In this document: piece after piece, positions 9,874 to 25,694 of the stretch | How the letters are laid out: each line of letters starts with the position of its first letter | Numbering within the stretch: position 1 is the stretch's first letter | DNA from: Spirochaetota bacterium | GTDB lineage: Bacteria > Spirochaetota > UBA4802 > UBA5550 | Length of the DNA stretch: 64,000 nucleotides | Assembly: GCA_963664815.2 (NCBI GenBank) | Contig: CAXXHB010000003.1 | Coordinates: forward strand, 192,001-256,000 | Direction: 5' to 3' | The notes under the pieces: model-generated | Databases searched by the model: none | What the model saw: the letters and a program-made list of their open reading frames with translations, nothing else | What the model was told of the DNA's origin: nothing | Program-made: the position numbers and the translations under genes

Positions 9874-10627
9874 TGTTAATTACCTCTTCAGCAAGTTTTT
9901 CATAAGCGATACTTCCTGGACAGGTTTTGTCGTAATGTCCTATAGGTTTTCCGAATGAAGGAGCCTCTGAAAGCTTGACATTACGTGGTATTATTGTCTG
10001 AAAAACTTTATCCTTGAAATACTCTTTCACGTCATTGACAACCTGCTGAGCAAGATTTGTCCTGGGATCATACATGGTCAGTACAACACCTTCGATCCTC
10101 AGTGATTTGTTAAGATTTTCCTGAACCATTATTATAATGCGAAGCAGCTGGTTTATACCTTCAAGAGCATAATATTCGCATTGAAGAGGTATAAGCACAG
10201 TATCAGCAGCAACAAGGCTGTTCAGTGTTAATACTCCAAGTGATGGAGGGCAGTCTATGAAAATATAATCATAATGATTTTTTATCGCAGCAAGTTTCTT
10301 CTTAAGAATAAATTCATTGCCTTCAATGTCAAGAAGGTCTACCTGTGCACCGGATAGATGTATATTCGCAGGAATAATAGACAGTCCTTCAATATCAGAT
10401 TTAAATATTGCTTCATCAATAGGAATTTCGTCGATCATTACTTCATAGATTGTTGTTTCCATTTCCTCAGCATTAACTCCAATACCATAACCTGCATTAC
10501 CCTGAGGATCTATATCTATTATAAGAACCTTCTTACCTTTATCTGCAAGAAAGGCTGCTACATTTACTGTTGTTGTGGTTTTTGCTACACCACCTTTCTG
10601 ATTGGAAACAGAAATTATTCTTCCCAT
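9866..10627 (-). CDS. parA: Chromosome partitioning ATPase ParA/Soj
   Basis: NQKGGVAKTTT deviant Walker A, DIDPQGN, IDCPPSLG, IPRNVKLSEAPS; overlaps the parB start. Confidence 0.96.
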   Translation of the reverse strand: MGRIISVSNQKGGVAKTTTTVNVAAFLADKGKKVLIIDIDPQGNAGYGIGVNAEEMETTIYEVMIDEIPIDEAIFKSDIEGLSIIPANIHLSGAQVDLLDIEGNEFILKKKLAAIKNHYDYIFIDCPPSLGVLTLNSLVAADTVLIPLQCEYYALEGINQLLRIIIMVQENLNKSLRIEGVVLTMYDPRTNLAQQVVNDVKEYFKDKVFQTIIPRNVKLSEAPSFGKPIGHYDKTCPGSIAYEKLAEEVINND

Positions 10628-21930: not shown

Positions 21931-22651
21931 GATGTTACTCTCCTTTTGATGTTATATTAAGATTTATGTCACTTATAACAAGTCCGGAAAAACAAATGAC
22001 ATGGGGCAAGCAGAATTTTTAAAAAATTTATCAGACTGGATTGTGAACATGTTGCCTTGCCGTCTCCGGGGGCGCCGACTGAATCTGCTGAAGGTATACC
22101 TCGGGTTTTGCGAGATAAACGGGAAATGTATCGAGGGGAACATTGGCCACTTAAAAGACATTGTACTATAGGTTTTGATGCAAGCTTGTTTACCAACGGG
22201 GATTTTCTGTTAATAAATATAATACACTTTTAATATGTAAATATTGTTTATGGAACTATTTTTAAACAAATCGGGTCTAAAAAGAGTTCAAATAACGGAT
22301 GGGTGATGTGCAAAGCGAATAATATTAATGGTTATTTAGCAGATGAGCTTTTAATTAAGTCATCCCTCAAACTGAATAATTCATTGTAAATCACTCATTG
22401 ATAAAAATAAAATATACTTTTTTAACCGACATAAGAAGTGAAAAGATATAATAAAACCAGAAGTATCATAACCGGATATATGAACTGCTGAAAAACTGAA
22501 AGCCACATAATCCCCGGTAAGTAGAAGGAACCGTAATTTATTGAATTATATATTGACTTTTAATTTCCTGAAATTAATTTCGCTTTAAAGCGGTTAGATA
22601 GAGTTTACGGTCTGATGTTATATAAATATGGCGTTTTTACAGGAGCAGAAA

Positions 22652-24235
22652 ATGTTATTCGGAAAAACTGAAAAATATAAAAACAGGATGGCAGCATCTC
22701 TTTACATTCTGTTGCTGCTTGCAGTGAGCGCCTGCGGAGGGGGCGGAAGCAGTGACAGTGAACCTGCTGCAGGGACTAAATGGACTATAATGTATTACGG
22801 AGATGCTGACAATAACCTTGAAAGTGAACTGCTAAGTGATGTAGCTGAAATGAAGACCGGTATTGTAGATGGTCAGGGCGTTAATGTCATTGTACTGTTT
22901 GACAGAATTTCCGGAGAGAGCAGCGATTCAACCGTCTTTGGAAGTAATTTTACAGATACAAGGATATACAGAATTACGCATGGCAATACCTGGCGAAAAA
23001 GCGGCGCCACACAGTTCCCTGAAATAACTGAGAGTTCTTCATACGAGGCGAATATGGGGGATGCAAAAACTTTAAAGAAATTCATACAGTACTGCAAGGC
23101 GAATTACCCGGCAGATAATTATGCCCTTATACTCTCCAATCATGGAGGGGGACCAAAGAAGAAATCAGCATCATTATCCTCTTCAACAACTGACAGCAAT
23201 TCAGCAACTACAAAGAGCATCTGCTGGGATACAACAAGCTCCGACGATTTTCTTTATACGGCGGAGATAAGCGATACCCTTACATCGTCTGAATCTGTTC
23301 AGTTATTCGGCCTGGATGCATGCTTTATGTCTTCAGTTGAGTTTGCCTACCAGTTCCGCAATGATACAAGCAATACTGGATTTAAAGCGGAGATTATGGT
23401 TGCCTCTGCTCCCACTGAAACGGGATACGGCTGGGATTACGATGCCATACTTGACAGGCTTCAGAGCGGCGGAGGCAACAACGGTGAAACAGATATAACT
23501 CTCGGCGGTTATGAACAATATTACGATCCGGCTACACTTACTGCAACCCAGCTTGGCGCCATAATAATTGAGGAACAGAGAGATTCAACTGCAAGTGATT
23601 CGAGCCAGTCGCTTACATGTCTTGATTTATCAAAGGTTAAGGCAGTGAAAGATGCAGTTGATGCAATGGCGGTGGCGCTTACAGCAGGGACATCATCAAC
23701 AGACAAGACTAATCTTGAAGCGTTAAGAGGAAATGCGATGACTGCTAAACTGCTTCATTATTTTGATGAGACTGATGTAGATGAATGGATTGCTTATCCG
23801 TTTTTCGATCTATATAATCTTGCAGTGGCAATATATGGGAGTTCAAGTTTTAGCACTACTGTTAAAGATGATGCGAATGCGATAAAAACTGCAGTTGACG
23901 ACTTCGTTCTCTATTCATTTGCCAATTCAGATTTTACTACTGGGGCAGGTTCATATTACGGAGCCGATCCATTTATTGAAGGTAAAAGTGGTGTTCATAT
24001 ATTTTTCCCTGACGGTGATTATACATTGGGGAGTTATACATGCTGGGCTTACCAGTGGTGGTATAATGCCGCTGATCTTACAGCTTATACAGCAACAAAA
24101 TCTGTATATGGAAAACTTGCATGGTGCATTGATAACAAAACTACAACGACTTCAAATGTCGGCAACTGGTTTGAGCTTCTTGACAGCTGGTTCGATGTAA
24201 GCACCGGGACTGGCGTTAATTTATACCAGTGGTAG
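22652..24235 (+). CDS. Clostripain-family (C11) cysteine peptidase lipoprotein
   Basis: RBS AGGAG, lipobox VSAC, WTIMYYGDADNNLE, EANMGD, catalytic NHGGG and LDACFM. Confidence 0.92.
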   Translation: MLFGKTEKYKNRMAASLYILLLLAVSACGGGGSSDSEPAAGTKWTIMYYGDADNNLESELLSDVAEMKTGIVDGQGVNVIVLFDRISGESSDSTVFGSNFTDTRIYRITHGNTWRKSGATQFPEITESSSYEANMGDAKTLKKFIQYCKANYPADNYALILSNHGGGPKKKSASLSSSTTDSNSATTKSICWDTTSSDDFLYTAEISDTLTSSESVQLFGLDACFMSSVEFAYQFRNDTSNTGFKAEIMVASAPTETGYGWDYDAILDRLQSGGGNNGETDITLGGYEQYYDPATLTATQLGAIIIEEQRDSTASDSSQSLTCLDLSKVKAVKDAVDAMAVALTAGTSSTDKTNLEALRGNAMTAKLLHYFDETDVDEWIAYPFFDLYNLAVAIYGSSSFSTTVKDDANAIKTAVDDFVLYSFANSDFTTGAGSYYGADPFIEGKSGVHIFFPDGDYTLGSYTCWAYQWWYNAADLTAYTATKSVYGKLAWCIDNKTTTTSNVGNWFELLDSWFDVSTGTGVNLYQW

Positions 24236-24241
24236 TGAACA

Positions 24242-24510
24242 TGCATGCTTCGACTCCACGGCTGGTGAGCCTGTCAAACCACGGGGAGCGTGTGAGTAGT
24301 GGATGTGCATGCTTCGACTCCGCTCAGCAAGCGTGTGGGTAGTGGATTTTTGAGTTCGTGTTCAGGACGCTCATTGAGCGGAGTCGAAATGAGCTGTTTT
24401 GGGCACGATGTGCGAGTAGTAGACGTGCATGCTTCGACTCCACGGCTGGTGAGCCTGTCGAACCACAGCAAGCATGTGGGTAGTGGATTTTTAAGTTTAT
24501 GCTCAGGACG
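24242..24510. repeat. REP-like hairpin array, left of the nuclease
   Basis: TGCATGCTTCGACTCC at 24242, 24306 and 24426; TTCGACTCCGCTCA (24313) inverted with TGAGCGGAGTCGAA (24375). Confidence 0.9.
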
Positions 24511-24570
24511 TTTAATGTGCTGTTATTAAAAAAAATTACTTTATTACTTAATCCTGTTCGTATCTATAAT

Positions 24571-24873
24571 ATGCCATATATGTACATACTGAGATGTATT
24601 GATGATACTTATTATACAGGCAGTACCTGGGATTTGGATAGAAGATTGGAACAACATAATGCCGGAGAGGGTGCTAATTATACTTCAAAAAGAATCCCTG
24701 TAGCATTAGTATATTATGAATACTATGATTCAATAAGCACAGCGTATGAACGTGAAAAGCAGATTCAGGGATGGAATCGTGCTAAAAAGAAGGCATTGAT
24801 TAATGGCAATAAAGAAGAACTTCACCTTAGCTCAGAATGTAGTAATGAAACTCATTTCAGTAATAAAAAGTAA
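24571..24873 (+). CDS. Small stand-alone GIY-YIG nuclease (UPF0213/YhbQ-like)
   Basis: YMYILRC.D.TYYTGST.DL.RRL.QHN.G.GA.YT..R, catalytic-type E in AYEREKQI, W.RAKK.ALI. Confidence 0.92.
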   Translation: MPYMYILRCIDDTYYTGSTWDLDRRLEQHNAGEGANYTSKRIPVALVYYEYYDSISTAYEREKQIQGWNRAKKKALINGNKEELHLSSECSNETHFSNKK

Positions 24874-24882
24874 TAGAAAACT

Positions 24883-25134
24883 TGCATGCTTTGACTCCAA
24901 GGTTGGTGAGCCTGTCGAACCACAGCAAGCGTGTGGGTAGTTGACTTTTGAGTTCGTGTTCAGGACGCTCATTGAGCGGAGTCGAAATGAGCAATTTATG
25001 AATATGACTAATACCGATCGGCTTGTACTGAGCGTAGCCGGAGTAAGCCGAATGAGCAATTTATGAATACGACTAATACCGATTGGCTTGTGCTGGTCAC
25101 AGCCGGAGTAAGTCGAAATGAGCAATTTATGAAT
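24883..25134. repeat. REP-like array right of the nuclease plus 65/66-bp tandem repeat
   Basis: 24883-24967 is a near copy of 24426-24510; AATGAGCAATTTATGAAT recurs at 24986, 25051 and 25117. Confidence 0.9.
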
Positions 25135-25172
25135 GAAACCTTTTCAAAATGTGAACAAAACGAGGTTAACAG

Positions 25173-25694
25173 ATGAAAAAAACAGATATTATATTTATGC
25201 TTATTATTGCATCAGCCTTGTTTTGCGGATGCACTACTTTTTTCTCAAAAGCCGGTAATGCAGAAAGAGTATTAACTCATGAAATCAGATACAGTCACAA
25301 GGGGTCGAAGTCCGAGGGTCGAAGCGGTTATCTGAATTTTAAAAATGTTCTGCTTCCTGACTGTTTCAGTACGGTTGTTGATGGCGGTATGGTTTACATT
25401 TTTAAGTCAAAGAATACAACATGGGGTGATGACGGCTATTTCCCCTCTGATGGCGAACCTGCAGAGAGGGTTTATCCATCGGTAAACAACAGGATTTCTG
25501 ATGAAGATATTTCCCGTGGATGGTGTGAAGTAACCGGACATTATATTAATGCCCCTGCCGGATGGATCTTCGTTAAATGGTCAAACGGCAGTGCTGTGTT
25601 ATCTCCCGTTAAAGTTGATGAATTTGTAAAAGTAAAATCTATCAGACTTATTCCAAGAAATACAATGTTCTCCGGGAAGACGCTTTTAAGATAG
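25173..25694 (+). CDS. Hypothetical lipoprotein
   Basis: RBS GAGG, MKK start, hydrophobic stretch, FCGC lipobox-like. Confidence 0.7.
   Translation: MKKTDIIFMLIIASALFCGCTTFFSKAGNAERVLTHEIRYSHKGSKSEGRSGYLNFKNVLLPDCFSTVVDGGMVYIFKSKNTTWGDDGYFPSDGEPAERVYPSVNNRISDEDISRGWCEVTGHYINAPAGWIFVKWSNGSAVLSPVKVDEFVKVKSIRLIPRNTMFSGKTLLR

Follow-up and report, generated by a model that had tools for sequence, protein, structure and literature searches.

We analysed a 64,000-nucleotide (nt) stretch of a Spirochaetota genome (contig CAXXHB010000003.1, positions 192,001 to 256,000; hereafter the window), in which a small gene for a GIY-YIG nuclease lies between two arrays of hairpin-forming repeats. The gene occupies 24571-24873 on the + strand and encodes a protein of 100 amino acids (aa); its open reading frame (ORF) ends at 24873 and was read from the ATG at 24571, because most homologues open with MPYMYIL. 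The Pfam scan returned a single domain, GIY-YIG (PF01541, E=1.9e-19, residues 1-73), and residues Y5, Y15, G17, R25, H29, and E62 were invariant in an alignment of 34 homologues. The AlphaFold2 model (mean predicted local distance difference test score, pLDDT, 90.7) has the GIY-YIG fold, and the conserved Tyr, Tyr, Arg, and Glu residues and alpha/beta fold that define the superfamily are all present. The solved folds nearest to the model were those of UPF0213 proteins (1zg2 and 1ywl), followed by HIGLE, Slx1, I-TevI, and UvrC; the UPF0213 entries are nuclear magnetic resonance (NMR) structures, and the copy of the PDB searched held no structure of the Ssn family introduced below. A UPF0213 protein was also the best sequence match among solved structures (E=6e-13), and NCBIfam contained no family matching the protein. 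Homologues numbered 503 at E<=1e-3, the best non-self match being 76% identical; the closest relatives (74-76%) were of metagenome origin, and the sources included Spirochaetes, Leptospiraceae, Cyanobacteria, Chloroflexi, Gammaproteobacteria, and Bacteroidota.

The arrays extend for approximately 290 bp upstream and 260 bp downstream of the gene and are absent from the rest of the 64 kb. Their basic element is a hairpin with a conserved 14-nt loop, termed F when the loop sequence lies on the coding strand and R when its complement does. The units are as follows, with scores from a covariance model of the hairpin.

24233-24305, + strand: unit A, a split F-type head with a nested hairpin (74% copy of direct-repeat family D1, alignment A1, composite pattern match at 24249); half loop TTCGACTCC at 24249-24257 and nested loop TGAGCCTGTCAAA at 24266-24278.
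24305-24334, + strand: intact F hairpin (36.5 bits, E=1.6e-8) with arms GTGCATGC and GCAAGCGT and loop TTCGACTCCGCTCA at 24313-24326.
24367-24396, - strand: intact R hairpin (39.7 bits, E=1.7e-9; inverted repeat I1), whose + strand loop TGAGCGGAGTCGAA is at 24375-24388; it forms a REPIN-like doublet with 24305-24334.
24417-24520, + strand: unit C, the upstream bracketing direct repeat (D1 reference copy, composite match at 24433), consisting of a split F head (24433-24441), a nested hairpin loop (24450-24462), and a decayed R half.
24874-24977, + strand: unit D, the downstream bracketing direct repeat (D1 copy, 84% to 24417-24520, composite match at 24890), with split F head TTTGACTCC at 24890-24898 and a nested hairpin loop at 24907-24919.
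24965-24994, - strand: intact R hairpin closing unit D (best model match, 41.0 bits, E=6.4e-10; inverted repeat I2), with its + strand loop position at 24973-24986.
24986-25115, + strand: two tandem 65-bp units (family D4, 88%), each with a degenerate R-type hairpin giving a weak model match (25021-25050, 16.9 bits, E=0.017; 25093-25125, 13.6 bits, E=0.18).

A sequence-only reading of this locus had described a stand-alone gene of this kind amid palindromic units, bracketed by direct repeats of approximately 85 bp and accompanied by a REPIN-like inverted doublet and a 65-bp tandem, and each of these descriptions held. The bracketing repeats extend to 104 nt, and family D1 comprises the reference copy at 24417-24520, the 84% copy at 24874-24977, and a partial 74% copy at 24233-24336. 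The doublet corresponds to a 22-nt inverted pair (24313-24334 and 24367-24388, 86% complementary), and the tandem units (24986-25050 and 25051-25115) are 88% identical. The repeats exceeded shuffled expectation: TGCATGCTTCGACTCC occurred four times (mean of 100 shuffles, 0.36), GGTGAGCCTGTCGAACCAC three times, and ATTGAGCGGAGTCGAAATGAGC twice (both 0 in shuffles), with every copy within 24242-24992. The same reading proposed a candidate repeat-propagation system other than RAYT (REP-associated tyrosine transposase; REP, repetitive extragenic palindrome), and, in agreement, no transposase, RAYT, or Y1_Tnp domain was detected among the 39 window ORFs of at least 110 aa.

The covariance model, built on 150 hairpin instances described below, was run across the 64 kb with filters off. 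Strong matches (E<=1.6e-8) were confined to 24305-24334 (+), 24367-24396 (-), and 24965-24994 (-). The eight remaining listed matches had E values of 0.41-9.3; two of them fell on the split heads (24241-24276 and 24425-24460), whereas six were non-significant matches beyond the locus. Neither the loop pattern nor the model found a hairpin copy elsewhere in the window. As single-stranded DNA (ssDNA), the doublet region 24297-24400 was predicted to fold into one long hairpin (-19.9 kcal/mol, z=-4.4), which none of 200 shuffles equalled. Units A, C, and D are composites, in which a hairpin with a 13-nt loop (TGAGCCTGTC[GA]AA) lies nested inside an outer F hairpin, after TTCGACTCC in its loop and before the closing arm (24249-24282, 24433-24466, and 24890-24923). 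Since these units are copies of one repeat, the three nestings may record a single event.

The design of the hairpin became clear from its copies in relatives of the nuclease gene. A scan of representative genomes with the 34-homologue alignment yielded at least 595 stretches, of which 590 were confirmed; the 80 best served as loci (denoted by L and a number), each with up to 10 kb of flank per side; their proteins are 56-68% identical to the window protein, and all come from genomes other than that of the window. The element consists of a 5-8 bp stem of free sequence and a conserved 14-nt loop, TTCG[AG]CT-N-CGCTCA. The conserved stretch of 13-15 nt coincides with the loop, while the arms vary from copy to copy yet remain complementary. 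At least four contiguous Watson-Crick pairs abutted the loop in 248 of 329 gene-proximal instances, compared with approximately 25 of 436 when the right arms were permuted, and 47 distinct 5-bp stems were present among the gene-proximal instances. In a gap-free alignment of 150 instances, drawn randomly from 356 distinct 14-nt-loop instances, 74.3% of the pairing cells were paired (51.4% in shuffles), and the covariation score was 0.598 (0.209 in shuffles, none of 500 reaching the observed value). All eight stem pairs varied on both sides, and sliding the partners reduced pairing to 28-44%. Because the instances were selected by the loop alone, the complementarity of the arms is independent of the selection. 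No publication containing any of six 14-nt motif strings was found in a search whose coverage excluded subscription journals.

The association between hairpin and gene is widespread. The 80 loci span 11 phylum labels, and 77 of them contain the pattern TTCG[AG]C-N2-4-GCTCA, on either strand, no farther than 600 bp from the gene (upstream in 64, downstream in 68, and on both sides in 55), the enrichment in homologue flanks that had been proposed as a check on the window's repeats. The 8-mers of CTTCGACTCCGCTCAG and its complement were enriched 20-110 fold close to the gene (400-450 bp), with sequence beyond 1.5 kb as the reference, and the density of the loop motif within 200 bp of the gene was approximately 30 times the distal density. 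The longer homologues carry read-through tails, FDSAQG...SLSEVEG, which are TTCGACTCCGCTCAGG and its reverse complement in translation; the same DNA as in the window repeats thus trails the nuclease gene in very distant organisms. In the flanks of L026, L075, L079, and L080 (Spirochaetota, Leptospirales, and Chloroflexota), other hairpin repeats adjoin the gene, such as CTCGACTCCGCTCG in L026, where the arms are GCTCCC and GGGAGC, and, in L079, units of the GCTTCGATACG type. As the pattern missed these, the motif family is wider than counted.

This association bears on whether the hairpins could be ordinary REP-like or regulatory elements of the host (terminators, mRNA stabilisers, or protein-binding sites), among which the gene merely sits, with no specific interaction between nuclease and hairpin. 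In favour of this, hairpins at both ends of the gene could affect its transcript, and hairpins are also present away from it, with 32 of 60 distal clusters lying in open frames of at least 200 codons, so that not all of them act as gene-tied extragenic elements. An ordinary host role would also have to account for the same 14-nt loop accompanying one gene clade in 11 phyla, despite protein identities of only 56-68%, for the steep rise in density close to the gene, and for the occurrence of hairpins in both orientations. A terminator reading was discarded, with no intrinsic-terminator-like site in 24100-25300. The single promoter-like site in the region scanned was assigned to the next gene. 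Rfam gave no match at the gathering score in the window or in seven related loci, and at E values up to 10 on 24100-25250 it gave only a chance-level snoRNA match (E=8.2), inside the gene. We consider such an ordinary host role, with no specific nuclease-hairpin interaction, very unlikely.

The layout around the gene was also consistent across loci (counts here include the window in addition to the 80 loci). The nearest upstream hairpin was of the R type in 45 of 65 loci, at a median distance of 35 nt from the start codon, and the nearest downstream hairpin was of the F type in 51 of 69, at a median of 13 nt past the end of the protein match. The typical order is an R hairpin 13-40 nt before the start (29 of the 45 cases), the gene, and an F hairpin that follows the coding end at 6-20 nt; further F...R doublets are often present. 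The loops of F and R hairpins are exact complements, and such a pair co-folds in the window doublet. It could accordingly be imagined that the 5' R and 3' F loops pair in the transcript, the one just ahead of the start codon and the other just past the coding end, and so govern how stable the nuclease mRNA is or how it is translated. Many copies, in both orientations, are however found at a great distance from such genes, the start-proximal R hairpin of the window has decayed while the gene is intact, and the related enzyme SsnA is reported not to interact with RNA (PMC11893778). An RNA-level function of this kind appears extremely improbable.

SsnA of Neisseria meningitidis offers the closest functional precedent. 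In the article by Chenal et al. (Nat Commun 2025, PMC11893778), the source of the statements on Ssn in this paragraph, it is described as a 94-aa single-domain GIY-YIG protein (CDD cd10448) that binds a hairpin repeat, NTS, and cuts just upstream of it, on one strand only and in single-stranded DNA only. An NTS-like motif (SRM) was found near the gene for 71% of SsnA homologues and on both sides for 42%; of the genomes having more than 200 SRMs, 81% contain ssnA. Three further homologues cut beside their own repeats, giving four Ssn enzymes in all, and SsnA modulates natural transformation. The defining activity of an Ssn enzyme is site-specific cleavage of ssDNA beside its cognate hairpin, with double-stranded DNA and RNA spared. 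Membership of the family is assigned by placement in the cd10448 clade or by a blastp match to the N. meningitidis protein (E<1e-10, 75% cover), and proteins larger than 150 aa are dropped; the window protein, with 100 aa in one domain, is within that size. Many nuclease/repeat pairs of this sort were expected by the authors, whose Discussion describes NTS-ssnA-NTS as insertion-sequence-like and compares it with IS200/IS605, REP/BIME, and RAYT.

The window locus shares with this system a small (approximately 94-100 aa) single-domain GIY-YIG protein and a gene flanked on both sides by hairpin repeats that are also dispersed elsewhere, in many phyla. The C-terminal motif REKQ[IL].[GK]W.R..K..LI is common to the window protein and SsnA; the tail differs, being LH.LAEC.NE.H in the window clade and N..W.DL in SsnA. 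Over 80 residues, the window protein is 39% identical to the Neisseria gonorrhoeae orthologue of SsnA (50 bits, pairwise E=1e-14), and a tblastn search of a 7.3-Gb plasmid collection matched it to this orthologue at E=3e-6. The orthologue (L081) is 97% identical to the N. meningitidis protein, and eight NTS copies surround its gene. The record concerned (NZ_CP119140.1, 2.17 Mb) is filed as a plasmid and is apparently the chromosome.

A tree of 42 proteins (IQ-TREE, 101 columns, pseudogene L095 omitted) contained a UPF0213-like group of eight (support 99/90, starred), an SsnA-like group of 11 (100/99, starred), and the window clade of 21 (90/88). The window clade and the SsnA-like clade fall on the same side of the starred 99/90 branch, with UPF0213 opposite, which places the window protein nearer to Ssn than to UPF0213, yet outside the characterised SsnA-like clade; membership in UPF0213 (YhbQ/YazA) was rejected on this ground. 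The alphaproteobacterial proteins L082 and L083 were basal to both the SsnA-like and window-clade groups. L082, from Sphingomonas parapaucimobilis, is 48% identical to the window protein (74 bits), and its gene is also flanked by the 14-nt loop motif.

Protein clade and hairpin type corresponded. The SsnA-like genes L081 and L094 (Shinella) carry SRM sites (eight and four, respectively) and no loop motif, and the window clade and L082 carry the loop motif and no SRM. Within the window clade, the residue at loop position 5 (A or G) clustered on the protein tree (12 changes versus 20 in shuffles), for which host relatedness could be an alternative cause, and the middle triplet of the loop (TCC, TTC, or TAC) did not cluster (31 changes versus 34.2). 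The tree used for these comparisons was poorly resolved, with 3 of 78 branches starred, and a finer co-variation between loop and protein was set aside. Two further observations stand apart. An SsnA-like GIY-YIG gene on Planktothrix agardhii plasmid p1 (L084, 789-1073), which lacks either hairpin type, has an MmeI-type restriction-modification gene and the DISARM helicase gene drmA as neighbours. A Bacteroidetes metagenome-assembled genome (MAG) has a textbook NTS-like SRM, TGTCATTCCCGC...GCGGGAATCC (L014, 17134-17166), with no GIY-YIG gene detected nearby in the 20-kb locus.

From the conserved association, the layout, and the kinship, we consider it probable, by analogy with SsnA, that the locus is an Ssn-like module, in which the GIY-YIG nuclease gene is bracketed by a cognate hairpin that the enzyme likely recognises. 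The sequence-only reading knew of no established mechanism for such an arrangement; one has been published, since Ssn nucleases bind flanking hairpins and cut beside them in ssDNA (PMC11893778). Its central idea was likewise already in print, because the same article draws the RAYT/IS200 parallel. Judged by sequence, the window clade and its hairpin design are nevertheless distinct from the published Ssn systems, although the general kind has been published. Per-genome flags in Supplementary Data 4 of that article mark five window-clade species as positive both for an SsnA homologue by tblastn and for cd10448 by psiblast, and A. spongiae (L047) as negative for the former and positive for the latter; in these six species, the fold-enrichment of SRM was just 0.79-2.1.

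Several points weigh against the assignment to an Ssn-like module. The window hairpin has a conserved 14-nt loop and a variable stem, as opposed to the conserved ATTCCCGC stem and short loop of NTS in the published description. The SRM pattern, HGTCWYN(0-2)YYVSBRHN(0-5)WNVSBRGN(0-2)RNCYNB, which recovered the eight N. gonorrhoeae and four Shinella sites, matched nothing in the window and nothing in the 500 bp on either side of the gene at the 80 loci. The window protein scored slightly higher against Bacillus subtilis YazA of UPF0213 (59 bits, 36% identity) than against SsnA, and UPF0213 proteins are its nearest solved structures. In the tree, the SsnA-like clade is on a long stem branch (1.8), and the support for the window clade is unstarred. 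The loop motif was absent from L025, L075, and L079, the downstream flank of L025 being just 130 bp long. In the window itself, the R hairpin adjoining the start codon is decayed, its R half now being A/T-rich (alignment A1). Finally, binding and cutting by the window clade are argued solely from analogy.

If the Ssn-like assignment is correct, the protein would bind the loop hairpin in single-stranded DNA, such as arises in replication, transformation, or conjugation, and would nick at a fixed place in or beside it, by analogy with SsnA. The exposed loop rather than the stem would then be read, as the loop is the conserved part and hence the likely reading surface. The cuts might serve to control incoming ssDNA, as proposed for Neisseria, to spread the hairpins, or to move the cassette.

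The last of these roles overlaps with a reading in which the R hairpin, gene, and F hairpin form an autonomous mobile element, resembling an insertion sequence (IS) or a homing element, with the nuclease as mobility enzyme and gene-less doublets as non-autonomous derivatives. It is compatible with an Ssn-like module, and the inverted hairpins that bracket the gene at tight, conserved distances suit it. Gene-less copies are also abundant: the 80 loci contain 88 loop motifs at distances above 1 kb from the gene, compared with 2.4 expected from first-order Markov simulations. Their 60 clusters comprised 43 single hairpins (30 R and 13 F), seven simple F..R doublets with 24-66 nt spacers, and ten others. 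Identical 6+6-nt arms were found in 9.2% of within-locus pairs and 0.62% of between-locus pairs, and 12 of 87 distal copies matched, in their arms, a copy flanking the gene at that locus, compared with 0.2 of 88 in the control. Arm variants shared within loci, together with repeats away from the gene, fit copying within genomes, and this pattern does not itself identify the copying agent.

Other observations argue against a mobile gene unit. Each of the 80 loci has one copy of the nuclease gene per 20 kb, no additional divergent GIY-YIG gene was found in them with a hidden Markov model (HMM) at E values up to 1, and the window has no further copy. The protein tree followed the phyla closely (14 label changes, with a minimum of 10 and 35.9 in shuffles), pointing to mostly vertical descent and long residence rather than frequent transfer, although, over 326 nt, the gene of L011 (Gemmatimonas) is 82.8% identical at the DNA level to that of L041 (Geobacter). 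No target-site duplication was seen. The three nested hairpins in the window, which would suggest insertion of one hairpin into another, may be the product of one event, and the only other composite-like palindromic site in the 80 loci was in L003 (minus strand, 13325); nested insertion as a general habit was consequently set aside. Two gene copies of one MAG (L059 and L068) have 70% identity, and the most frequent arm sets of one differ from those of the other. Homogenisation of hairpins between them was rejected, only short stretches being shared. On balance, an autonomous mobile element is rather unlikely.

The same results bear on two proposals of the sequence-only reading. Its suggestion of a selfish repeat module stands with respect to the link between gene and repeats, the dispersed copies, and the sharing of arms within loci; the part in which the nuclease drives the copying found no support. 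A cassette moving through its direct repeats likewise found no support, and the bracketing 104-nt repeats, being just 84% alike, count against a mobile element.

The genomic neighbourhood of the cassette showed a recurring setting. Of 77 loci, 22, belonging to several phyla, have the type I methylase HsdM encoded by the largest ORF within 1.5 kb upstream, and the two genes share a strand in 21; the cassette is then directly 3' of hsdM, a recurrence that favours mobility. HsdS was the largest downstream ORF in 13 of these 22, placing the cassette between hsdM and hsdS. The window locus itself is outside this context, and a frequent position between the two genes distinguishes the window clade from Ssn. 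Loci with HsdM include L011 (8987-9994 and the downstream flank), L032, L041, L051, and L056. By eye, the hsdM frame in L011 and L032 (at approximately 9950-10000 and 10440-10500) enters the first hairpin after an ending ...LEGML, and in L032 a second ending, ...ALEGMLT*, occurs past the cassette, immediately ahead of hsdS. Such endings on the borders hint at entry of the cassette into the last hsdM codons. Other neighbours of the cassette encode HsdR, Shedu SduA, a Schlafen-like protein, Cas3, a Cas9-like protein, and RhuM.

Taken further, these data would allow a second, independent nuclease/repeat partnership, a non-HUH counterpart of RAYT/REPIN in which the GIY-YIG enzyme copies both the hairpins and its own R-gene-F cassette through ssDNA and prefers to land behind type I hsdM; we regard this as quite unlikely. 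The likeness to RAYT/REPIN lies in a single-copy gene, dispersed short palindromic repeats, and inverted F...R doublets, and the difference in the flanked gene, which encodes a GIY-YIG protein instead of an HUH Y1 protein, with no Y1_Tnp in the scanned window ORFs. IS200/IS605 elements similarly comprise a short gene-bearing unit with a hairpin near either end and have ssDNA as presumed substrate, but the present locus is without TnpA/TnpB, its flanking hairpins are in opposite orientation, and there is one gene copy per locus. Proteins of UPF0213 (Escherichia coli YhbQ, B. subtilis YazA, and BH0048, PDB 1zg2) are alike in size and fold; however, eight UPF0213-like loci had neither hairpin type in their 800-bp flanks, and the four from Bacillota and Klebsiella among these were in conserved housekeeping contexts. 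I-TevI-type homing endonucleases share the GIY-YIG catalytic core and possible selfish behaviour, whereas the window protein has no DNA-binding extension, is not in an intron or intein, and gave a weak fold match to 1mk0 (E=0.42). Literature searches combining GIY-YIG with REP, REPIN, RAYT, COG2827, UPF0213, or YhbQ found nothing on a link to such repeats, and the Ssn paper was the sole relevant match for GIY-YIG with hsdM, hsdS, or cd10448; the portions of PMC8432527 and PMC1564403 considered make no mention of a GIY-YIG/hairpin link.

What the locus indicates for the Ssn family is an entire clade, found in at least 11 phyla and paired with a hairpin of another design, a conserved loop on a free stem, which escapes the published SRM search pattern. 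Should the enzyme cut as predicted, a family wanted as ssDNA tools would gain a new specificity class, and whether such nucleases propagate their repeats or guard against incoming DNA could be studied in a second system. The frequent location of the cassette between hsdM and hsdS would then also call for an explanation.

The remainder of the window has a chromosomal, housekeeping character (38.8% G+C), with parAB, metG, trpS, and an extended series of PAS sensor kinase genes. The nuclease gene is preceded by a clostripain-family lipoprotein gene (22628-24235) and followed by a small lipoprotein-like gene (25173-25694). Between 30754 and 61217, approximately a dozen genes, all on the + strand, encode PAS-domain sensor histidine kinases, response regulators, and one GGDEF protein.

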